Source of the DNA: an uncultured Ruminococcus sp.
GTDB taxonomy: Bacteria; Bacillota; Clostridia; Oscillospirales; Acutalibacteraceae
DNA length: 34,028 nt
Direction of reading: 5' to 3'
Assembly: GCA_902773065.1 (NCBI GenBank)
Contig: CACYDD010000087.1
Span: forward strand, 1-34,028
Shown here: piece after piece, positions 3,269 through 32,510 of the stretch
Numbering within the stretch: position 1 is the first letter of the stretch
Layout: each line of letters begins with the position of its first letter
Position numbers and translations under genes: made by a program
The notes under the pieces: model-generated
What the model was told of the DNA's origin: nothing
The model's input: only the letters and a program-made list of their open reading frames with translations
Databases searched by the model: none

Positions 3269-3383
3269 AAATAATCCCTCATTCCTTTTGTTTTACTGTT
3301 GTTACAATAACGAAATAATCAACTCGTCACCGTCATATAATAATACATCTTATATTTTAACTTTTTTTTTCCATTCTGTCAAG

Positions 3384-3471
3384 CCCTGCGCACCACGTGC
3401 GCAGGGAATTCGCGTAGCCGCTACCTACGGTCGCTACTTTTTTTAAAAGTCAAATTCTTTGCCGCGTTTCA
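3384..3471 (+). repeat. dispersed intergenic repeat, copy A (subfamily 1)
   Basis: A perfect 10-bp stem with a 3-nt loop (ccctgcgcac cac gtgcgcaggg, 3384..3406) is followed by AATTCGCG. About 45 nt later comes TTGCCGCGTTTCA (3459..3471). Copies at 19748..19831 and 25770..25833 have the same layout. Confidence 0.7.
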
Positions 3472-3551
3472 GATTATATAAAATTATAATCCATATACTT
3501 GACTCGCGGCATTGAATTTATGTAATGCATAAACCAGAACGCGAATCGTTC

Positions 3552-3623
3552 GGTGCGGTCACGCACCCTCCGCTGTCAATTTCCCGCTCAAGTTTATAGA
3601 AAACCATAATTTTATTGCCGCGC
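3552..3623 (+). repeat. dispersed intergenic repeat, copy C (subfamily 2)
   Basis: The hairpin ggtgcg gtca cgcacc (3552..3567) is followed by CTCCGCTGTCAATTTCCCGCTCAAGTTTATAGAAAACCATAATTTTATTGCCGCG. By eye the ~48-nt tail is about 90 percent identical to the reverse complement of 27295..27340. Confidence 0.7.
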
Positions 3624-3695
3624 CTCAGGATTGATACTTATGGTGTAGTATATATCTGCTAAAATAAATTTACATTAAAAAGGTTGAAGATATTT

Positions 3696-4793
3696 ATGAA
3701 AAAAAGACTATTGATTTCAATACTGTGTTTTTTGCTGATGGCAGGGTTGCCGCTTTTGTCGGCAGGCGGTCATATGGACGGAGAAGCTTTCACAGAGATG
3801 TTTGGAGCAGAAGAAACGGAAAGTGCAGAAACATCTGTGCAGAGCCAGACAACTAAAAAAGAAGAAAGTAAAGAAAATTCAAAGAGCGAAAGTAAGACAG
3901 AAAAATCACAGAATAGCGAAAATGATACCAAGCAAAAATCAGCTACCGATACATTTATCATTCTTGATACGGCAAGCGGAAAAACGGTTGAAGTGGGGGA
4001 CAGGGATTTTTGTATGGGTGCGCTTGCCTATGAAATGCCGCCTTCCTTTGAAAAAGAAGCCCTCAAAGCTCAGACGGTGGCACTTTATACCCATTTTTGC
4101 CGTATCAGGGAAAAACAGCGGAAAGAACCCGAAAAAGACCTGAAAGGGGCAGATTTTTCGGCAGACCTGAAAAAGGGAGAAATTTACCTCACAGATGAGG
4201 TTTTAAAAGAAAAGTGGGGGAGTCTGTATGATGAGAGCATAAAAAAAGTCCAAACAGCCGTTGATGAGGTATTCGGAGAAGTTCTGACAAGCGGCGGCGA
4301 GCTGATCGATGCCTGTTATCATGCGATTTCAAGCGGAACGACGGAAAATGCAGAGGATATTTTTGGATTTAAGTGTGATTATCTGAAAGCTGTCGCCAGC
4401 CCATGGGATACTGCCGCACCCGATTACATGACAAGTGCAGACTTTACCACAGCTGAATTCAAAGAAAAACTCAGCAGTTTCGGTATCAGCTTTTCGGGCA
4501 AAGCGGAGGATTATATCAAAAATATTTCCGCAACACCGTCAGGCTCTGTCAAAACGCTGAAAATATGTGGAAAAGAGCTGACAGGTTCGCAAGTGCGGCA
4601 GACGTTCGGCTTGCGGAGTGCTGCTTTTACCGTAAAATATGCAGGCGGAAAATTCACTTTTACTGTCAAAGGCTATGGTCATGGTGTCGGGCTCAGTCAG
4701 TACGGCGCACAGGGTATGGCTCAGCAAGGCTCAGACTACAAAGAAATCCTACAACACTACTACAGAGGGGTTCAATTAGGAATTAGGAGTTAG
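3696..4793 (+). CDS. spoIID: stage II sporulation protein D (SpoIID/LytB-domain lytic transglycosylase)
   Basis: The C-terminal motif GYGHGVGLSQYGAQGMAQQG is typical of SpoIID. An N-terminal signal/anchor follows the ATG at 3696 (MKKRLLISILCFLL). The track start at 3684 is a TTG directly abutting the AGG, so 3696 is preferred. Confidence 0.85.
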   Translation: MKKRLLISILCFLLMAGLPLLSAGGHMDGEAFTEMFGAEETESAETSVQSQTTKKEESKENSKSESKTEKSQNSENDTKQKSATDTFIILDTASGKTVEVGDRDFCMGALAYEMPPSFEKEALKAQTVALYTHFCRIREKQRKEPEKDLKGADFSADLKKGEIYLTDEVLKEKWGSLYDESIKKVQTAVDEVFGEVLTSGGELIDACYHAISSGTTENAEDIFGFKCDYLKAVASPWDTAAPDYMTSADFTTAEFKEKLSSFGISFSGKAEDYIKNISATPSGSVKTLKICGKELTGSQVRQTFGLRSAAFTVKYAGGKFTFTVKGYGHGVGLSQYGAQGMAQQGSDYKEILQHYYRGVQLGIRS

Positions 4794-4803
4794 GAATGAG
4801 GAA
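4776..4803 (+). repeat. heptanucleotide tandem array TTAGGAA TTAGGAG TTAGGAA TGAGGAA (overlaps the spoIID stop codon)
   Basis: There are four exact-period 7-nt units. The third unit supplies the spoIID TAG (4791..4793). TAGs at 4777 and 4784 fall in the other two frames. Confidence 0.85.
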
Positions 4804-4913
4804 TGGTTTTGTGAAAAAATCGATGCTTTACACAATGCAAACGGGCAATGAAGTTGATTGGAAAATTTTGATATGTTTGAAAAAATGAAAATAAATTTTG
4901 TGTAAAATAACAG

Positions 4914-5722: not shown

Positions 5723-5872
5723 ATGGAAAGAACATCAAACAGACCTCTTGCAATGAATGAGCTTACAAAAGAACAGCTTGATACAGAAATCGCAAAGGGG
5801 TTGGCTGATATAGAAAATGGCAGAGTCTATTCAGCAGAAGAAGTTCAGGAAGAATTACACGACTTATACTAA
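5723..5872 (+). CDS. 49-aa antitoxin-like small protein (not in the ORF track because it is under 60 aa)
   Basis: The ATG at 5723 has GGAGGG 7 nt upstream (5710..5715). The translation is MERTSNRPLAMNELTKEQLDTEIAKGLADIENGRVYSAEEVQEELHDLY. The G-x-x-D-I-x-x-G-R-V-Y-S-A-E-E-V segment resembles toxin-neutralising segments of ParD/RelB-type antitoxins (from memory). Confidence 0.5.
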   Translation: MERTSNRPLAMNELTKEQLDTEIAKGLADIENGRVYSAEEVQEELHDLY

Positions 5873-5919
5873 TATCGTATAAATAATAGACAAACGCAAA
5901 AATATCTGATATAATAAAA

Positions 5920-6420
5920 ATGGTGATGAACATGAAATATCAGATAACGGAAAAGCAAAAAGAAGAAATAGAACAGACACGCAAGAAAAACAAAAATAAG
6001 CAAATAGAAAGACGCTTGAAAGTATTATCGCTGAAGGCAGAAGGAGCCAGCTACAAAGAAATAATGGCTGCAACCGGATATAGTAAAGCAAATGTAGCAA
6101 AGATAGTTAAACTATATTTTGAAAAAGGCATAGAAAAAATTATAACAATTAAGTATGGAGGCAACCATCGTAATCTTAGTTACGAAGAAGAGGAACAGCT
6201 TCTGCAATTGTTTGTGAAGAAAGCTGAACAAGGACAAATCGTTGAAACCAAAGAAATAAAAGAAAAGTACGAACAAGCAGTAGGACATCCAATTGGAAGC
6301 GGACACATATACTATATTCTAAAAAGGCACGGTTGGCGAAAAATAATGCCGAGAAGCAGACATCCGAAAAAAGCAACACCGGAGGCGATTGAAGCCTCAA
6401 AAAAATTAAACGATTTGTAA
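5920..6420 (+). CDS. IS630-family transposase, N-terminal HTH part (orfA)
   Basis: The 166-aa ORF has helix-turn-helix-like segments (SYKEIMAATGYSKANVAKIVKLY) and a winged-helix part (HIYYILKRHGWRK). It stops at 6418..6420, just after an A7 run. Confidence 0.85.
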   Translation: MVMNMKYQITEKQKEEIEQTRKKNKNKQIERRLKVLSLKAEGASYKEIMAATGYSKANVAKIVKLYFEKGIEKIITIKYGGNHRNLSYEEEEQLLQLFVKKAEQGQIVETKEIKEKYEQAVGHPIGSGHIYYILKRHGWRKIMPRSRHPKKATPEAIEASKKLNDL

Positions 6421-6461
6421 AGGAAATACAAGAAATCAACAAAGATTCCACCGTTCGTTTA

Positions 6462-6965
6462 ATGTTTCAGGATGAGGCAGGATTCGGGCGTATCAACAAG
6501 CCTAAATACTGTTGGTGCAAAAAGGGATATCGTCCCTCTGTCCCATGTCATCATATAAGGGAATACAGATATGTTTATGGTGCAGTAGAACCACTCAGCG
6601 GAGAAAACTGCTTTCTTGTTATGCCTTATTGCAATACGGACTGTATGAATGTATTTCTTGCTCATCTTTCCAAATCCTATAAAGAGGATCAAATTGTGTT
6701 AGTATGCGATGGAGCTGCCTGGCATAAATCTAAAGGTTTAATTATTCCTGATAACATTCATATTATTTTTATCCCACCTTATACACCGGAAATGAATCCA
6801 ATTGAACAAATTTGGAAAGAAATACGAAAGATGGGTTTCAGAAATGAAGTATTCCAAACTCTCCAAAAGGTTATTGATCGCCTGTGTCAATCTATTCGTG
6901 CTTTATCTCATGATACTATTAAATCCATTACTGCAAGAGATTGGATTGTGTCTATTTTTAATTAG
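6462..6965 (+). CDS. IS630-family transposase, DDE catalytic part (orfB; frame is open from 6393)
   Basis: The DDE_3 hallmarks are present: FQDEAGFG, LVCDGAAWHKS and PPYTPEMNPIEQIWKEIR. This reading frame is open upstream to 6393, so it overlaps orfA by 28 nt in the -1 frame. Confidence 0.85.
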   Translation: MFQDEAGFGRINKPKYCWCKKGYRPSVPCHHIREYRYVYGAVEPLSGENCFLVMPYCNTDCMNVFLAHLSKSYKEDQIVLVCDGAAWHKSKGLIIPDNIHIIFIPPYTPEMNPIEQIWKEIRKMGFRNEVFQTLQKVIDRLCQSIRALSHDTIKSITARDWIVSIFN

Positions 6966-7006
6966 ATATTAGTATTAATAAAATAATATATTTTAAAAAC
7001 AAAATT

Positions 7007-8658: not shown

Positions 8659-8802
8659 ATCCTTTTCCTTTCTTTTTTCTTGCTATAAATCCACAAAAAT
8701 GAAATATTGCATAAGTGTTGTAAGATATCTCCCCCTTTGAGTTTTATATCAAAGGCAACTTTAAAAACTTCACTTTAGCGTACCAACTCCGCCACGCCGC
8801 AA

Positions 8803-8837
8803 TTCACAACTCCTAATTCCTAATTCCTAACTCCTAA
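8803..8837 (-). repeat. heptanucleotide tandem array TTAGGAG TTAGGAA TTAGGAA TTAGGAG TTGTGAA, 3 nt after the tex stop codon
   Basis: The minus strand reads TAA GAG then five 7-nt units. It uses the same unit, and the same orientation relative to the upstream gene, as the array at 4776..4803. Confidence 0.85.
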
Positions 8838-8840
8838 CTC

Positions 8841-10979
8841 TTACTTCATGGTGAGGGAGATTCTGCCCTTTTCGGCATCAACGGCGAGAACTCTGACTTT
8901 GATGACATCGCCGACATTGAGGACATCGGAGGGGTGTTTGATTCGCTTCTCGCTGATTTGTGAGATGTGGACAAGTCCGTCCTGATGAACACCGATATCA
9001 ACAAATGCACCGAAATCTATGACATTTCTGACAGTGCCTTTGAGTTCCATGCCCTCTTTGAGGTCTTTGATATCAAGCACATCGGTACGCAGGAGCGGCG
9101 GAGGAAGCTCATCACGGGGGTCTCTGCCGGGCTTGGTAAGCTCTGTGATGATATCTTCAAGGGTAGGTCTGCCGATACCGAGTTTTTCGGCGGCATTGTC
9201 AAGACCGATGGCGGCGGCTTTCCGGTTCAGTTCGGAAAGACTGCCGTTTCTGATATCGTCGGTGGTATAGCCGCACAGCTCTAAAAGTTGTTTTGCGGCT
9301 GTATAGGATTCGGGGTGAACAGCGGTATTGTCAAGCGGATCAGCACTTTCGGGCACTCTTAAAAAGCCTGCACACTGTTCAAATGCTTTCGGTCCGAGTT
9401 TTGATACTTTTTTCAGTTCTGCACGGGATTTGAACGCACCATTTTCTTCTCGGTAGGCTACAATATTTCCCGAAACAGTTTTGCTGATGCCTGCCACTCT
9501 GGAAAGCAGGGCAGGGGAAGCAGTATTCAGGTCTGCGCCAACAGTGTTAACGCAGTCCTCAACAACACCGTCAAGGGCTTCACTGAGCCGTTTTTGCGGC
9601 ATATCATGCTGATACTGTCCCACACCGATCGCTTTCGGTTCGATTTTCACAAGCTCTGCAAGCGGATCCTGTAATCTTCTTGCGATAGACACTGCACTTC
9701 TGAGCGTCAGGTCAAGGTCGGGCATTTCAGCGGCGGCAAGCTTGGAAGCGGAATAAACCGATGCGCCTGCTTCGCTGACAACCATGTAGGAAACCTTATT
9801 GTCAATTTCAGAGATACATTCGGCAGTAAACATTTCTGTTTCTTTTGAAGCCGTGCCATTGCCGATGGCAATAATTTCTGCGTTGTATTTTTTGATCATG
9901 TTTTTGAGGGTGGTTTTGGATTTCTGAATCTGTGCCTGACTGTGTGTCGGGTAGATAACAGCTGTGTCAAGCACTCTGCCTGTCGGGTCAACAACAGCAA
10001 GCTTACAGCCTGTGCGGTAGCCGGGGTCAAGTCCTATTGCGGTATGACCTTTTACAGGCGGCTGCATGAGAAGATTTCTCAGATTCAGTGCAAACAGGGC
10101 AATCGCCTGCTCGTCAGCCTTTTCGGTCAGCTCGTTTCTGATCTCACGCTCCAGTGAGGGGAAGATCAGTCTTGCATAAGCATCCTCGCAGGCTGCCTTA
10201 ACTGTCTGTGAAAATTCATTATCGGATTTGACAAGAAGTCTGTTTACAATATTCAGGCATTTTTCGGGCGGAATATCGATCGTGACTTTCAGGAAATCCT
10301 CCCGTTCGCCCCTGTCAATAGCAAGCACTCTGTGACCTGCTATTTTTGAAACAGGCTCGCCAAAATCATAGTAAAGTCTGTAAACACTGTCTTTGTCGGG
10401 GTCAGCGGCTTTGGAGCGGAGAAATGCATTCAGGCGGATAATATTTTTCAGCCTTTTGCGGATCTCTGCATTGTCAGAAACATTTTCCGCAATGATATCC
10501 ATTGCACCCTGAATGGCATCCTCTTCTGTTTCAACACCCTTTTCGGGGTCAATATATTTCTGTGCTTCTGTGCTAAGATTTCCGTTTTCCTGTGCAAAAA
10601 TGAGGTCGGCAAGCGGTTCAAGACCCTTTTCCTTTGCAACAGAGGCTCTTGTTTTTCTTTTCGGGCGGTAGGGGCGGTAGATATCCTCGATTTCGGTAAG
10701 AACAGACGCTTTTTCTAAAGCGGCGGCAATTTCGTCATTCATTTTGCCAAGACCGTCGATCAGATTGTAAACTTCCTCACGGCGTTTATCCAGACCTCTT
10801 AAATATTCAAGACGTTCGCTGATGGAGCGAATCGTCTGGTCATCAAGTGTACCGTGCATTTCCTTGCGGTATCTTGCGATAAAGGGAATGGTATTTCCCT
10901 CATCAAGAAGATTGATGATATTCTGTGCATATTCTTCTTTGATCTTAAATTCCTCTACAAGTTTTGCTGCGTAATTCAT
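8841..10979 (-). CDS. tex: Tex-like RNA-binding transcription accessory protein (YqgF/HHH/S1 domains)
   Basis: The 712-aa ORF has the N-terminal motif TIPFIARYRKE and the central YqgF-like segment GLDPGYRTGCKLAVVD. The C-terminal S1 domain reads GMELKGTVRNVIDFGAFVDIGVHQDGLVHISQ. Confidence 0.9.
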   Translation of the reverse strand: MNYAAKLVEEFKIKEEYAQNIINLLDEGNTIPFIARYRKEMHGTLDDQTIRSISERLEYLRGLDKRREEVYNLIDGLGKMNDEIAAALEKASVLTEIEDIYRPYRPKRKTRASVAKEKGLEPLADLIFAQENGNLSTEAQKYIDPEKGVETEEDAIQGAMDIIAENVSDNAEIRKRLKNIIRLNAFLRSKAADPDKDSVYRLYYDFGEPVSKIAGHRVLAIDRGEREDFLKVTIDIPPEKCLNIVNRLLVKSDNEFSQTVKAACEDAYARLIFPSLEREIRNELTEKADEQAIALFALNLRNLLMQPPVKGHTAIGLDPGYRTGCKLAVVDPTGRVLDTAVIYPTHSQAQIQKSKTTLKNMIKKYNAEIIAIGNGTASKETEMFTAECISEIDNKVSYMVVSEAGASVYSASKLAAAEMPDLDLTLRSAVSIARRLQDPLAELVKIEPKAIGVGQYQHDMPQKRLSEALDGVVEDCVNTVGADLNTASPALLSRVAGISKTVSGNIVAYREENGAFKSRAELKKVSKLGPKAFEQCAGFLRVPESADPLDNTAVHPESYTAAKQLLELCGYTTDDIRNGSLSELNRKAAAIGLDNAAEKLGIGRPTLEDIITELTKPGRDPRDELPPPLLRTDVLDIKDLKEGMELKGTVRNVIDFGAFVDIGVHQDGLVHISQISEKRIKHPSDVLNVGDVIKVRVLAVDAEKGRISLTMK

Positions 10980-11038: not shown

Positions 11039-11066
11039 ATACTAACCACTAATCACTAATCACTAA
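11039..11066 (-). repeat. heptanucleotide tandem array TTAGTGA TTAGTGA TTAGTGG TTAGTAT beginning in the stop codon of the 232-aa gene
   Basis: The minus strand reads TAT TAG TGA TTA GTG ATT AGT GGT TAG TAT. The first unit contains the TAG stop (11065..11063). TAG and TGA recur every 7 nt. Confidence 0.8.
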
Positions 11067-11761
11067 TAATCGAACGGGAAGGTTTCTTCCTTGCCGAGGG
11101 CTTGTACAGCGAGAAGATATTTGCCGCTTGTTTTGCCGTTTCTGACTTCATAGCTGCCGTTATTCACTGATGCAGTGGAAACACACTGAGCGATGATACC
11201 GTTTTGTTTATAAATATCCACATAATGGTAACCGGGGAGATGGTCGGGCGCAGGTTCAAAGATACCTGTTGTGACATATTCCACAGCGGTAAGTGTTTCA
11301 CCCCGGTTGATGGTAGCGTCCTTGATTATGTAAGCATTGTAGGTGGGAGAAACGATTTGTATGATGTTTATGACGAGAAGGAACATTCCGATAGTGGAAA
11401 TGAGTACTAAGGATATTTTACCGTTTTCCTGAACCTTGTATTTTTTGACTGTCTTGTTGCTTATGATCAGACCGATGATCATCATAGCAACAGGAAGTAA
11501 TATTACAAATCCGAAATAAGAAGTGCAGATCGTGTTGTCGATGATGATCTCAAACTTTAAAAGAGTGTGGGCTAAATTCATCAGCACAACGATACAGAGC
11601 AGCCACATCCCGATATCATAAATGCGTCTGCCTTTGACATAGTCTTTGTCCTTTTTCAGCTGTGTTTTCGAGTCCTGCAAGGGAGCAGAAGCAGTATCGG
11701 GGGCGGTTGTTTCAGGTTCTGCGGCGGTGTTGATCGTTTTGTTATTTTTTTCTTCTGACAC
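11063..11761 (-). CDS. membrane protein, function unknown
   Basis: The 232-aa ORF starts with GTG at 11761, with AAGGAGG 8 nt upstream. A polar N-terminus is followed by three predicted TM helices and a C-terminal soluble domain. Confidence 0.7.
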   Translation of the reverse strand: MSEEKNNKTINTAAEPETTAPDTASAPLQDSKTQLKKDKDYVKGRRIYDIGMWLLCIVVLMNLAHTLLKFEIIIDNTICTSYFGFVILLPVAMMIIGLIISNKTVKKYKVQENGKISLVLISTIGMFLLVINIIQIVSPTYNAYIIKDATINRGETLTAVEYVTTGIFEPAPDHLPGYHYVDIYKQNGIIAQCVSTASVNNGSYEVRNGKTSGKYLLAVQALGKEETFPFDY

Positions 11762-18728: not shown

Positions 18729-19748
18729 ATGAAAATCGGTTATCTGACGAGAGTGCTCAGCGGTGTGCGGTTTAAAAAGATGCAGTCTGCTATTAATGAA
18801 GTACATGATAAATCCGGAAAAAATAAAATTGCGACCTTTTTTGATATGATCGGCTGCGGTCTGAAATACGGCGCGGGCTACAATGACTATATCATTTTTG
18901 AGTTCTATAATATGAACGCAAAGCAAAGAAAAACATATCTTACCAGACTCAAAAACAAGAGGATGATTTCAGAGCTTAACGATGAGAAATATTCCTATAT
19001 TTTTGACGAAAAGAATGTTTTTGACAAGAAATTTGCTGCGTTTACCGGAAGAGAGATTCATGACCTTGCCGATATTGATTTTGACGGTTTCAAGAAATTT
19101 ATCGAGGGAAAGGAATATATTTTCGCAAAGCCGTATATCGGTGAAAGCGGAAAGGGAATCGAAAAGCTTCATATTCCTGATTTTGCTTCTGCCGAGGAGC
19201 TTTACAAATATGTGACCAACCCTGAAAAGAATTTCGGCGTGATTGAGGAAGTGATCGTTCAGCATCCTCAGGCAGCAAAGATCTATCCGTATTCGCTGAA
19301 TTGTCTCAGAATTGTCACGCTGGTCAATAACGGAACGCCGTATATTCTGTATGCGGTATTCAAAATGGGCAACAACGGAAAGTTTGTTGATAACCTTGAA
19401 AACGGCGGACTGGCTTGTCATTTTGACCTTGACAAGGGTGAGATCACAGGCTGTGGGCATACTTCGGCACTGGTGAATTACGATGCTCATCCTGCCACAG
19501 GCATTAAGTTTGAAGGCTACAAGCTGCCGTATATGAAGGAAGTCAAGGAGCTGGTGAAAAAGGCTGCTCTTGTGATTCCTGAACACCGTTATGTCGGCTG
19601 GGATGTCTGCCTGACACCGAACGGTCCTGCGATCGTTGAGGGAAATGATTTCCCTGCTTATGATTTTCCGCAGCTGCCTGACGAGGGCAAGGAAAGAATC
19701 GGACTCATTCCCAAAATTGAAAGCTGCGGTTTCAAAGTAAGAAAATAG
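18729..19748 (+). CDS. sugar-transfer-associated ATP-grasp ligase (ATPgrasp_ST-like; assignment from memory)
   Basis: The 339-aa ORF has GGGGGA 5 nt upstream. The N-terminal block FFDMIGCGLKYGAGYNDYIIFEFYNMNAKQRKTYLT and the C-terminal block GWDVCLTPNGPAIVEGN fit that ATP-grasp family. Confidence 0.7.
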   Translation: MKIGYLTRVLSGVRFKKMQSAINEVHDKSGKNKIATFFDMIGCGLKYGAGYNDYIIFEFYNMNAKQRKTYLTRLKNKRMISELNDEKYSYIFDEKNVFDKKFAAFTGREIHDLADIDFDGFKKFIEGKEYIFAKPYIGESGKGIEKLHIPDFASAEELYKYVTNPEKNFGVIEEVIVQHPQAAKIYPYSLNCLRIVTLVNNGTPYILYAVFKMGNNGKFVDNLENGGLACHFDLDKGEITGCGHTSALVNYDAHPATGIKFEGYKLPYMKEVKELVKKAALVIPEHRYVGWDVCLTPNGPAIVEGNDFPAYDFPQLPDEGKERIGLIPKIESCGFKVRK

Positions 19749-19831
19749 CGGAGTGCCTCCGCAGTCAATTCGCGCAGTCGCTACCCTTCGGTCGCTCTGA
19801 AAGGGAAAGATTAATTTATTGCCGCGTTTCA
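19748..19831 (+). repeat. dispersed intergenic repeat, copy B (subfamily 1), starting in the stop codon of the ATP-grasp gene
   Basis: The hairpin gcggag tgc ctccgc (19748..19762) is followed by AGTCAATTCGCG, and later by ATTGCCGCGTTTCA (19818..19831). The first 20 nt are identical to the reverse complement of 25814..25833. Confidence 0.7.
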
Positions 19832-25769: not shown

Positions 25770-25833
25770 CGCGGCAAAAAAATTTCGCATTTGACAAAAG
25801 TCAAACGCGAAACTGACTGCGGAGGCACTCCGC
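25770..25833 (-). repeat. dispersed intergenic repeat, copy E (subfamily 1), abutting the 3' end of tRNA-Val
   Basis: The minus strand reads GCGGAGTGCCTCCGC AGTCAGTTTCGCG ... TTTTTGCCGCG. The hairpin starts 1 nt after the tRNA CCA. Confidence 0.7.
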
Positions 25834-25834
25834 C

Positions 25835-25910
25835 TGGTGGGAACAACAGGGCTCGAACCTGTGACCCTCTGCTTGTAAGGCAGATGCTCTCCCAGCTGAG
25901 CTATGCTCCC
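25835..25910 (-). tRNA. tRNA-Val (anticodon UAC), CCA encoded
   Basis: The reverse complement is GGGAGCATAGCTCAGCTGGGAGAGCATCTGCCTTACAAGCAGAGGGTCACAGGTTCGAGCCCTGTTGTTCCCACCA. It folds into a cloverleaf with a 7-bp acceptor stem, the anticodon loop CTTACAA, and a GTTCGAG T-loop; total length is 76 nt. Confidence 0.92.
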
Positions 25911-27147: not shown

Positions 27148-27244
27148 TATATACTGTAAAGTGAGTTATTATTAAAGAAATTTGGATGGCAGGAATAAAT
27201 GTGCCTTAAGTAAGAAAGTGGTGACCGTAGAGATCGGATACATG

Positions 27245-27358
27245 AATTGACAGCGGAGGCACGTTAGTATAAAATAATTTTGGAAGTTTTATGGCGCGGC
27301 AAAAAATAATGGTTTTCTATGAAACTTGAGCGCGAAATAGTCCTGTGCGGTCACGCAC
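27245..27358 (-). repeat. dispersed intergenic repeat, copy D (subfamily 2, inverted orientation)
   Basis: The reverse complement contains the hairpin gtgcg tgac cgcac, then TTTCGCGCTCAAGTTTCATAGAAAACCATTATTTTTTGCCGCG, and further on CCTCCGCTGTCAATTC. These modules also occur in copy C at 3552..3623. Confidence 0.65.
27247..27275 (+). promoter_or_regulatory. candidate promoter P1 upstream of the fab operon (TTGACA-N17-TAAAAT)
   Basis: The -35 is at 27247..27252 and the -10 at 27270..27275. The -35 is supplied by the ATTGACAGCGGAGG repeat module. Confidence 0.4.
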
Positions 27359-27387
27359 TTGACAAATTGTGGGATTTGGTATAAAAT
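27359..27387 (+). promoter_or_regulatory. candidate promoter P2 upstream of the fab operon (TTGACA-N17-TAAAAT)
   Basis: The -35 is at 27359..27364 and the -10 at 27382..27387, about 108 nt upstream of the fabH ATG. Confidence 0.5.
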
Positions 27388-27495: not shown

Positions 27496-28458
27496 ATGAG
27501 TTTTACGATTCTGGGAACAGGTAAGGCAGTTCCTGAGTATGTGATGAAAAATGATGAGCTTTCAACAATGGTTGAAACTAATGACGAATGGATTCGTACA
27601 AGAACAGGTATAGAGGAACGCCATATCGCCAAAAGCGAAACAATTACTCAGCTTTGCGTTGAAGCAGCAAACAACGCACTTGAAAATGCAGGGGTAAAAC
27701 CTGAAGAACTTGACCTGATTATCTGCTCTACCATGAGGGGAGAAAATATCACTCCGTCTCAAGGCTGTATGATACAGAAAGAAATAGGTGCTTCTTGCCC
27801 TGCTTTTGATGTCAATGCGGCTTGCTCGGGCTTCATTTATGCCCTCGATATTGCGGCAGGCTATTTTGAAAGAAAAAGAGTTAAAAAAGCACTGATCGTT
27901 TCGATGGATAATCTGTCCAATATTACTGACTGGACAGACCGTTCCACCTGCGTACTTTTCGGTGACGGCGGTGCAGCAGCAGTTCTCGGAGAGGGCAATG
28001 ACCTCCTGTCAATTCACCTTACCGCTGTCGGCAATGACGATGCGATCAGAATACCGCACGGTACAAATTCTTCACCGTTCTATGAGCATGAGGAAGAAAA
28101 AGCTGTTCTGCATATGGCAGGCAACGAAGTATATAAATTTGCAACTGCTGCTATGGCAAACGGCATTAAAAAAGCTGTTGCGGATGCAGGTCTGGAACAG
28201 AGTGACGTTGACTGCGTTGTACCGCACCAGGCTAATATCAGAATCATCAATACTGCTGCGAAAAACCTTGACATTCCGAGAGAAAAATTCTTCTGCAATG
28301 TTCAGCATTACGGAAATACTTCCTCAGGAAGTGTACCGATCGCTCTTGACGAAGCAAACCGCTCAGGTGTACTGAAAAAAGGCGACATTGTGGCACTGTG
28401 TGCTTTTGGCGGAGGACTTACAACAGGCAGCTGCGTAATACGCTGGAACAAGGATTAA
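27496..28458 (+). CDS. fabH: 3-oxoacyl-ACP synthase III
   Basis: The catalytic Cys is in AACSGF, the His in PHQAN, and the Asn in YGNTSSGS. GGAGG lies 8 nt upstream. Confidence 0.92.
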   Translation: MSFTILGTGKAVPEYVMKNDELSTMVETNDEWIRTRTGIEERHIAKSETITQLCVEAANNALENAGVKPEELDLIICSTMRGENITPSQGCMIQKEIGASCPAFDVNAACSGFIYALDIAAGYFERKRVKKALIVSMDNLSNITDWTDRSTCVLFGDGGAAAVLGEGNDLLSIHLTAVGNDDAIRIPHGTNSSPFYEHEEEKAVLHMAGNEVYKFATAAMANGIKKAVADAGLEQSDVDCVVPHQANIRIINTAAKNLDIPREKFFCNVQHYGNTSSGSVPIALDEANRSGVLKKGDIVALCAFGGGLTTGSCVIRWNKD

Positions 28459-28479
28459 TGAGGAATTAGGAATGAGGAA
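28459..28479 (+). repeat. heptanucleotide tandem array TGAGGAA TTAGGAA TGAGGAA directly after the fabH stop codon
   Basis: The array starts at the nucleotide after the TAA (28456..28458). The 17-mer at 28466..28482 is identical to 4790..4806 (TTAGGAATGAGGAATGG). Confidence 0.8.
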
Positions 28480-28540
28480 TGGATGCTGATTCCAAACTTC
28501 ATTCGGGAATTCATTGACTACTGACATTGGAGGAAAAAAT

Positions 28541-29457: not shown

Positions 29458-30204
29458 ATGTTTGAATTAACCGGTAAAACCGCAATTATAACAGGTGCAT
29501 CAAGAGGAATCGGCAAGGCGATTGCGCTGAAATATGCCGATCTTGGTGCGAATATTGCATTTCTGCATTTTGGTGACGGCGAAAATGCGGTGCAAACTGA
29601 AAAAGAACTTGCAGAAAAGGGCGTTAAGGTAAAGGCTTACGAATGTAATGTTGCTGATGCGGAAGCTTCTGCGAAAGTTGTTGAGGAAATTATTGCCGAA
29701 TTCGGTGAGGTTCATATCCTTGTCAACAATGCAGGTATTGTCAGAGATACGCTGATTCTTTCCATGAAGGAAGCGGATTTCGATGCGGTTATCAATGTCA
29801 ACCTTAAAGGCACATTCAATATGACAAAGGCGATTTATAAGCACTTTATGAAAAAGCGCAGAGGAAGAATCATCAACATTTCCTCTATTATTGGCATCAC
29901 AGGCAATGCAGGGCAGGCAAATTATGCTTCTGCAAAGGCAGGTATCATCGGTCTGACAAAATCTGTCGCAAAAGAACTTGGTTCAAGAAATGTCACAGCC
30001 AATGCGATCGCTCCGGGCTTCATCAAAACAGATATGACAGACGGTATGCCCGAAAAGGCGAGAGAAGCGGCTCTTGCAGCAATTCCGCTGAAACGTATGG
30101 GTACAGTGGAGGATATTGCTAATACAGCAGTATTCCTTGCAAGTGACGAGGCTTCCTACATTACCGGCGAAATCATCAAAGTTGACGGCGGAATGGCAAT
30201 ATAA
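29458..30204 (+). CDS. fabG: 3-oxoacyl-ACP reductase
   Basis: The SDR motifs are TGASRGIG, NNAG and YASAKAG. Confidence 0.92.
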   Translation: MFELTGKTAIITGASRGIGKAIALKYADLGANIAFLHFGDGENAVQTEKELAEKGVKVKAYECNVADAEASAKVVEEIIAEFGEVHILVNNAGIVRDTLILSMKEADFDAVINVNLKGTFNMTKAIYKHFMKKRRGRIINISSIIGITGNAGQANYASAKAGIIGLTKSVAKELGSRNVTANAIAPGFIKTDMTDGMPEKAREAALAAIPLKRMGTVEDIANTAVFLASDEASYITGEIIKVDGGMAI

Positions 30205-30222
30205 TGCATAATGCATAATGAA
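30202..30222 (+). repeat. heptanucleotide tandem array TAATGCA TAATGCA TAATGAA beginning with the fabG stop codon
   Basis: TAA occurs at 30202 (the fabG stop), 30209 and 30216, which covers all three frames. Confidence 0.75.
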
Positions 30223-30301
30223 TGTGGATTTGGGAAAATACCATGACAGATTGGTTTATCATAATAAATGACTTACTACTTTAAAGAAAGGAATTAAATA
30301 G

Positions 30302-32049: not shown

Positions 32050-32478
32050 ATGAATAAAGAAGAAATTATGCAGGTGATCCCTCACAGAAATTCCATGCTT
32101 CTGATCGATGAAGCAACCAAAACAGGCGAAACAACCTGCGAGGGCAAAAAATACATCAAGGGCGACGAATGGTTTCTTGACGGTCATTTTCCCGGAAATC
32201 CCGTTGTTCCCGGCGTGATCCTCTGCGAAATGATGGCACAGGCAAGTGCTGTGATCATTTCGGAGGTTTCAGCGGCAAGTACTCCTTATTTTACGGGAAT
32301 TGAAAAAGCAAAATTCAGAAATAAGGTTCTGCCCGGCGATACTCTCGAAATCAAATGCGAACTGACCGGACAAAAGCGTAACTTTTACTTTATCAAAGGC
32401 AAGGGCTATGTCAACGGAAAGCTCAGTGTTTCTGCGGAATTCTCTTTTGCACTTGTACCAAGAGAAAGCGCGCAATAA
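32050..32478 (+). CDS. fabZ: 3-hydroxyacyl-ACP dehydratase
   Basis: The motifs are IPHRNSMLLIDE and LDGHFPGNPVVPGVILCEMMAQ. Confidence 0.92.
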   Translation: MNKEEIMQVIPHRNSMLLIDEATKTGETTCEGKKYIKGDEWFLDGHFPGNPVVPGVILCEMMAQASAVIISEVSAASTPYFTGIEKAKFRNKVLPGDTLEIKCELTGQKRNFYFIKGKGYVNGKLSVSAEFSFALVPRESAQ

Positions 32479-32510
32479 TTTTCCATTTTCCATTTTCAAT
32501 TATTAATTTG
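32476..32510 (+). repeat. 7-nt periodic array TAATTTT CCATTTT CCATTTT CAATTAT TAATTTG beginning with the fabZ stop codon
   Basis: Two units are exact and three are degenerate, all with a strict 7-nt period, in the fabZ-accC spacer. Confidence 0.6.

Follow-up and report, generated by a model that had tools for sequence, protein, structure and literature searches.

We classify the dispersed intergenic repeats described here as a previously undescribed family of small mobile repeats, of the MITE/REP/BOX-like class, from one genus of rumen bacteria; they are probably a genus-specific family of non-autonomous mobile DNA elements, ~39-150 bp long and with asymmetric ends. The window that was analyzed, a stretch of 34,028 nucleotides from an uncultured Ruminococcus sp., contains six units and one fragment (Table 1). 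An initial annotation of this window had proposed five copies of a modular dispersed intergenic family, and both their positions and their motifs were confirmed by sequence and by a 14-mer repeat map of the whole genome, which within the window picks out exactly those intervals together with unrelated heptamer arrays. All five copies are real; the count nonetheless rises to six units plus a fragment, one inverted unit (A') having been missed. The description of the copies as strictly intergenic holds, though the first G of unit B is the last base of a TAG stop codon.

Table 1. Repeat units and adjoining promoter sites in the window.
Feature	Position	Strand	Evidence and content
Native citrate-synthase promoter	3354..3382	-	TTGACA-17-TAAAAT; 11/12 matches
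Unit A	3384..3471	+	hairpin, box 1, type II body, box 2, TTTCA
Unit A' (missed by the initial annotation)	~3502..3567	-	nhmmer matches, E = 2e-6
Unit C	3567..3624	+	nhmmer E = 1e-12; covariance model hit 3555-3641
Unit B	19748..19831	+	nhmmer; hairpin, AGTCAATTCGCG, type II body, box 2 19819-19826, TTTCA
Unit E	25770..25834	-	nhmmer; hairpin 25819-33, one more pair possible to 25818-34
Truncated 5' end of another unit	27244..27262	-	GTGCCTCCGCTGTCAATTC; abuts the tail of D
Composite promoter-like site	27247..27275	+	TTGACA-17-TAAAAT; 11/12 matches
Unit D, full length	27263..27358	-	covariance model hit, E = 4e-15
Native fabH/fab-operon promoter	27359..27387	+	TTGACA-17-TAAAAT; -35 box directly abuts the hairpin of D

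Beyond the window, iterated nhmmer models returned 196 units (65-nt model) to 209 units (95-nt model, 54 of them full-length) in the 2.43-Mb draft genome of 429 contigs, so that about 200 units occupy ~1% of the genome and the proposal of a modular dispersed family is supported genome-wide. Exact counts of the shared motifs were 54 for GCGGAGTGCCTCCGC, 42 for CCTCCGCTGTCAAT, 28 for GTGCGGTCACGCAC and 107 for TTGCCGCG, and a reversed-pattern control gave 0 matches; taken with the 14-mer map and the number of nhmmer units, these figures place the repetition far beyond chance. Repeated 14-mers, all repeat families pooled, are where 89 of 858 contig ends stop, and the family is a plausible contributor to MAG fragmentation in this rumen genus (Ruminococcus bromii-like Acutalibacteraceae); its copies could also act as strain markers for rumen metagenomes.

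Among relatives, 19 of the 25 genus genomes carry the hairpin-plus-box pattern, the range being 0-71 copies per genome (71 in G000), and none of 16 further families of the order has it. Run against 70 further genera of the family, a covariance model built on the full element gave no convincing match; the strongest outside the genus were two marginal ones at E = 4.5e-4. By record name, the pattern occurs in rumen MAGs labeled "uncultured Ruminococcus sp." and Acutalibacteraceae, in a few MAGs from chicken and rabbit, and in Ruminococcus sp. JL13D9, the sole complete isolate genome with the motif, in which it takes the form of a solo hairpin plus TGTCAAT only; the copy-rich genomes of the genus are all draft MAGs. 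One of the interchangeable bodies described below, type I, is plentiful in just two genomes, G000 and its closest relative, G004 (51 hits). The repeat had originally been reported as matching no familiar class, and this stands: with Rfam, tRNA alone exceeded the gathering threshold in the window and positions 3300-3700 gave no match up to E = 1, the phage, plasmid and viral-contig collections searched gave no match to the family, and literature searches turned up no description of it. Carriage by phages or plasmids was ruled out on the same absence of matches in phage, plasmid and viral records.

Each unit reads in the order 15-nt GC hairpin, box 1 (usually TGTCAATT(T)CGCG, or ACCCTATTTCGCG), AT-rich body, box 2 ((A/T)TTGCCGCG) and often a 3' tail, which has the form AAAGTCCCRGAAWWATTTTACACYAAC or a variant of it and ends TTTTACACYAAC. 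The body is one of several unrelated AT-rich sequences, and the tail, present in ~40% of units, comes in two types, CCATAAAGTCCCRGAAWWATTTTACACCAAC or TTCRAGTTRATATGCCAACTATAATTTTACACTAAG. Instead of the two subfamilies first suggested, we distinguish at least four body types (I-IV), two tail types (a, b, or none) and at least eight hairpin versions, GCGGAG, CCGGCG and GCRCAG among them, and since hairpin, body and tail types are combined in mixed fashion the family is truly modular. The same 5' module is set around unrelated bodies in G007 and G009; in G007 the tail is retained as well, and hairpin, TGTCAAT and tail there enclose an unrelated body of ~110 nt. A tail lies near the hairpin in only 2 of 115 loci from other genomes, so the hairpin-plus-box module and the tail may have separate histories. 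As to arrangement, 124 units are solitary and the rest are joined tail-to-tail (at a fixed 15-18 nt), head-to-head (~0 nt) or in tandem (mostly 22-39 nt). Terminal inverted repeats are absent: 16-nt terminal inverted matches average 5.4, against 6.3 in shuffled termini.

Recognition of the inverted unit A' resolves the stretch 3384-3624 into A(+), A'(-) and C(+). Unit A begins with the perfect 10-bp stem that had been noted at the outset (3384-3406, CAC loop), followed by box 1 AATTCGCG (3407-3414), box 2 TTGCCGCG (3459-3466) and TTTCA (3467-3471), and terminates in TTGCCGCGTTTCA; it is matched by eight genome copies that are 60 nt or longer, 91-96% identical in the best cases. Lying tail-to-tail with A, unit A' has its hairpin GGTGCGGTCACGCACC at 3552-3567 and both boxes in reverse complement (box 1 CGCGAATCG, 3540-3548; box 2 CGCGGCAT, 3505-3512). 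Unit C is 5'-truncated and begins at the 3' half of a hairpin, CCTCCGC (3567-3573), from which it continues through TGTCAA (3574-3579) and a type I body to box 2 (3615-3622). A gap of 1 nt separates the -35 box of the native citrate-synthase promoter (3377-3382) from the unit A hairpin, and the flank of this promoter, TGTCAA included, is kept in the sister species G004.

Unit B shares its body and a 13-mer with unit A, as originally observed, and precedes the bidirectional terminator of a convergent gene pair; its hairpin GCGGAGTGCCTCCGC spans 19748-19762, the first G being the final base of the upstream TAG. A TAG stop codon supplies the first G of this hairpin in two unrelated genes, one in the window (19746-19762) and one in JL13D9 (locus L014 at 5256, ...ATAGCGGAGTGCC...). 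The hairpin of unit E is directly 3' of a tRNA gene (25838-25910), and its body (25781-25814) consists of a 15-bp stem followed by a T run (TTTTT), which by these features is predicted to be the intrinsic terminator of that tRNA; the unit terminates in TTTGCCGCG, and a twin of it follows another tRNA on contig C410. The grouping of E with A and B thus survives in the hairpin and boxes only, 22 of 23 nt of hairpin plus box being in common with B, and fails in the body, which would be the tRNA's own terminator. A scan of the window sites A, A', C, D and E flagged none of the unit hairpins as terminator-like.

At 27244-27358 two units meet. What had been taken for a single copy D at 27245..27358 is D proper, with hairpin GTGCGTGACCGCAC (27345-27358), box 1, type I body, box 2 and tail a, and, beyond the tail, the truncated 5' end of another unit, into the hairpin loop of which D appears to have inserted; a junction of this type is also present at contig C294, with a diverged version at C103. 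The similarity between C and D, estimated earlier at about 48 nt and about 90%, measures 47 nt at 91.5% identity, plus GTGCGGTCACGCAC and CCTCCGCTGTCAAT. The composite site of Table 1 is assembled from the opposite-strand reading of the fragment's TGTCAA and from the reverse-complemented tail of D, and on this match the junction is predicted to form a second fab promoter-like site upstream of fabH. The tail as a general inward-facing promoter was rejected, since a -35 partner at a suitable position accompanies just 3 of 60 tails. The native fabH promoter is kept in six other species of the genus, in which the upstream DNA is unrelated. Three different GC hairpins, GTGCGGTCACGCAC, CGGCGGCTTCGCCG and GTGCAGGGACTGCAC, directly abut the conserved fabH -35 box in three species (window 27345-27364, G004:C50 and G016:C134; loci L136 and L139); those of G004 and G016 have no recognizable unit body, which suggests that hairpins alone can be acquired beside TTGACA.

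The hairpin itself is a 6-bp stem closed by a WGC loop, and the loop is constant while the stem sequence varies. A perfect 6-bp stem with a 3-nt loop is formed by 121 of 196 units, against 0.5% of shuffled sequences, and the fully complementary stems include at least eight different versions. Pairing in the helix reaches 92.8% on alignment A3, with both-side changes in three of six pairs; the hairpin covariation score is 0.237 compared with 0.079 for shuffled alignments, none of 500 shuffles scored as high, and the signal collapses once the 3' partners are slid. The early impression of a hairpin with variable sequence and maintained stem is thereby borne out: it is the shape of the hairpin, and not its sequence, that is under conservation.

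The copies are mobile. In G000 a 99-nt insertion on contig C288 is flanked by a duplicated 7-bp TAAAAAA (...ATACA TAAAAAA [CCCG-GCGGATTGCCTCCGC...TTTTACACTAAC] TAAAAAA(A) GTACCC...), and the G004 orthologue has a single TAAAAAA and no element (...ATACA TAAAAAAA GTACCC...). Sites on C376 (GTTCAA) and C350 (TTCYTTCG) are likewise empty in G004, the latter also in G022 and G001, and in the reverse direction G004 elements are missing from G000; a handful of such empty sites were aligned at base level. Within the window, the three sites compared (A-C, B and D) have a different element or none in G004, at 85-92% DNA identity, unit B being absent from its position there. At least seven of eight flanking bases match in 9 of 31 full elements, compared with 2.8% for shuffled flank partners; duplications are visible in only ~30% of full copies and in clean copies are mostly 6-8 bp (range 0-9). 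Two minimal hairpin-plus-tail elements of 47 and 39 nt are flanked by duplications of GAAACGG and CATTAT, from which the hairpin and tail ends appear sufficient for insertion.

Insertions are precise at the 3' end and variable at the 5' end: the C288 element has the extra 5' nucleotides CCCG, and one G004 insertion has seven (CTTTCTT, L190) and no duplication. Duplications of 5, 7 and 9 nt were seen in G007, where several insertions lie within other hairpins. A tandem pair in G004 sits in a native terminator hairpin (contig C64 of G000, GGCGGAGTGATTCTCCGCTTTT) with GAGTG after each copy, and tandem head-to-tail copies join at 5-nt microhomology. This native intrinsic terminator (G000 C64, ~225-340), split in G004:C223 (L201) by the two tandem insertions, has a stem identical to the commonest element hairpin, and the element hairpin may be derived from host terminators or imitate them.

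We could not connect the family with a mobilizing gene. The RAYT domain (Y1_Tnp, PF01797) has 0 matches in G000, G007 and G009, MAGs that are 84-90% complete and carry 71, 41 and 29 copies, and does have matches in G018 and G019, which carry none; it was rejected as mobilizer for want of correlation with copy number. Reverse transcriptase (RVT_1) was rejected on the same ground, with no gene in the copy-bearing G010, G022 and G016 and three matches in the zero-copy G018. A unit-flanked gene for an Rpn/YhgA-like PD-(D/E)XK protein ("Transposase_31") was found, but genus-wide counts of this family do not follow the element either. This gene family is represented at G000 C65:1594-2523, by eight more G000 matches (some partial or pseudogenes) and by 12 in G041; one copy is flanked by units, and one pseudogene begins beside a unit hairpin on contig C12. 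Unit-flanked genes are mostly ordinary (5 of 10 scanned, one of them Rpn-like). As for an autonomous copy, neither G000 nor the fetched loci had a transposase between any two ends spaced 0.4-4 kb, draft MAGs being assemblies in which insertion sequences are poorly recovered; the end pairs seen at this distance are chance pairs of separate elements.

The units are associated with promoters. With gene calls taken from simple ORF maps, a crude guide, 174 of the 196 units fall between genes, distributed over 53 divergent, 7 convergent and 69 tandem intergenic regions, and in the tandem regions 49 units are opposite to the genes and 20 point in the same direction. At a cut-off of at least 9.5 of 12 for sigma-70-type sites, 22 of 43 full elements have an outward-reading promoter within 70 nt of the hairpin end and four have one at the tail end, and inward-reading sites number one at each end, compared with a background of 6.3% for 70-mers drawn at random from intergenic DNA. 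The distance from the hairpin to the start of the -35 box is 1-26 nt. The 41 hairpin-side promoters are all unique in sequence, and those read by eye lead to a ribosome-binding site and ATG, which identifies them as native gene promoters and not parts of the element; those of fabH and citrate synthase are present in relatives without these copies. Orientation is also biased with respect to GC skew, 105:59 (64:36), more weakly than the promoter relation (~85:15), of which the skew is probably a consequence; replication-strand bias was accordingly rejected as the cause of orientation. The oriented placement on the promoter side could reflect targeting, or selection after random insertion. New DNA is placed directly upstream of core-gene promoters (the fab operon, citrate synthase and many others), and with the occasional new promoter-like sites and terminators it is a likely driver of expression differences between strains.

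In our preferred explanation, which we consider probable, these are non-autonomous elements that have multiplied separately within species and insert at new sites, with a duplication of mostly 6-8 bp in clean copies; they settle by preference in AT-rich DNA, within 1-26 nt on the upstream side of a -35 box and with the hairpin towards the promoter. They also land within GC hairpins, either resident copies or native terminators, and in this way build up the mosaic arrays at 3384-3624 and 27244-27358. The hairpin, in single-stranded or cruciform form, is the likely feature that an enzyme acting in trans would recognize. Most copies are presumably neutral passengers, of which a few may have been co-opted, E as a tRNA terminator and the D junction as a second fab promoter-like site. 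Against this explanation we count the duplications that vary from 0 to 9 nt, which are unusual for a DDE transposase, the lack of terminal inverted repeats, and the fact that neither an autonomous partner nor a transposase with matching ends was found. The stronger form of this proposal, in which a mechanism undescribed in bacteria recognizes both promoters (the -35/UP region or bound RNA polymerase) and hairpins, with fixed orientation, a precise 3' and a variable 5' end, and an enzyme that is RT-like or reliant on microhomology, we consider unlikely. If it is true, the promoter-targeting mechanism would be a bacterial counterpart of promoter-targeting retroelements and SINEs. The element breaks several mechanistic rules, with no inverted ends, a hairpin conserved in shape only, variable duplications and a fixed promoter-side orientation, and identification of its enzyme might open up a new route of transposition and yield a promoter-targeting tool.

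Eukaryotic SINEs resemble the family in their precise 3' end, variable 5' end, variable duplications, AT-rich targets and lack of inverted ends, and a SINE-like route, in which the element is transcribed, reverse-transcribed and inserted by target-primed reverse transcription with a host or intron RT, or else by a microhomology-based process, would suit the 5' truncation of unit C, the extra 5' nucleotides at C288 and L190, the duplications of 0-9 nt and the 5-nt microhomology at the head-to-tail tandem junction. We nevertheless judge it quite unlikely: RVT_1 genes do not follow copy number, there is no sign of an RNA intermediate or a partner reverse transcriptase, the tail is missing in about half of the units although such a mechanism would need an intact 3' end, and neither an internal promoter nor a poly-A-like 3' feature is present. 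To our knowledge, no SINE-like system exists in bacteria.

It is very unlikely that the units are not selfish DNA at all and instead represent functional promoter modules under selection, whether insulators, UP-like elements or sites for a CGCG-box regulator. They are placed and oriented with striking consistency relative to -35 boxes, unit E would serve as a terminator, and three different GC hairpins have come to lie at one conserved fabH -35 box; yet the distance to the -35 box varies over 1-26 nt, the bodies are interchangeable, copies are not kept at orthologous sites even at 85-92% DNA identity, some follow stop codons and tRNAs, and 6 of the 25 genomes of the genus have none.

The suggestion in the initial annotation of a REP/MITE-like element is right insofar as the units are mobile, with empty sites and duplications, and does not extend to a correlation with RAYT or to terminal inverted repeats. 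REP/BIME and REPIN-RAYT systems of Proteobacteria are alike in having short, structure-conserved GC hairpins, hundreds of intergenic copies, mosaic arrays of inverted pairs and a narrow lineage. Spread of the GC hairpins as REP sequences by a domesticated RAYT (IS200-like Y1) acting on single-stranded DNA could thus draw on the short GC-rich palindrome, the inverted pairs at fixed 15-18 nt spacing, the BIME-like mosaics and the weak orientation bias with respect to GC skew (105 to 59). It is made highly improbable by the distribution of Y1_Tnp, which does not follow copy number, so that the family is not REP/RAYT; by the flanking duplications, Y1 transposition making none; by a skew bias weaker than the promoter bias; and by the unit listings, in which no GTAG-type conserved 5' motif is visible. 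The duplication-free, 3'-end preference of REP sequences was likewise not found, the copies here avoiding convergent gene ends and lying upstream of promoters, and the element differs further in being long and asymmetric, with a distinct 3' tail, and in its Firmicutes host.

Weakest of all, and in our view exceedingly improbable, is a structured small RNA family or a set of cis-regulatory RNA leaders, the RNA-level function raised at the outset, to which the compensatory hairpin changes and the intergenic location would lend themselves. Against it, whole units folded no better than shuffled sequence in five of six cases (z -1.2 to +1.1; copy A, with its 10-bp stem, z = -3.0), so that only the hairpin folds and whole-unit RNA structure was dropped; a trial second helix is only 56% paired, Rfam gives no match to the units at the gathering threshold, nor up to E = 1 in 3300-3700, bodies are unrelated between species, and most units lie upstream of promoters, pointing away from the neighboring gene.

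Other families of small repeats offer partial parallels to the mobile elements proposed here. MITEs such as the Correia elements of Neisseria are small, non-coding and high-copy, are flanked by duplications, lie near promoters, occasionally supply promoter-like sites and have a variable interior between conserved ends. The present family shares with MITEs the duplications and the empty sites in relatives, but it is not a classical MITE since it has no terminal inverted repeats, and it differs from the Correia elements also in its duplications of 0-9 nt instead of a fixed TA and in that no parent insertion sequence was found. BOX elements of Streptococcus pneumoniae (boxA-boxB-boxC) have exchangeable boxes, a Firmicutes host, an intergenic promoter-proximal location and genus-level restriction. 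The likeness is architectural only, with no apparent sequence relation, and the family here is set apart by its terminal structure-conserved hairpin and its documented empty sites with duplications. PATEs derived from IS200/IS605 share an end hairpin, asymmetric ends and possible recognition as single-stranded DNA; they differ in making no target duplication, in requiring Y1 TnpA and in having hairpins at both ends.

The window also holds repeats of other kinds. Short tandem heptamer arrays (TTAGGAA, CACTAAT, GCATAAT, TTTCCAT) occur at gene ends, with their 14-mers repeated genome-wide, and are found here at 4774-4806, 8802-8846, 11041-11067, 28456-28482, 30200-30224 and 32472-32509. An IS630-family element occupies 5866-6975, with 27-nt inverted ends (5866-5892 and 6949-6975) and a transposase that is split between an ORF with the HTH domains (5920-6420) and one with DDE_3 (6462-6965). 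Finally, a 39-nt (13-codon) repeat is present in six tandem copies at 392-703, within a 546-aa ORF on the minus strand (221-1861).
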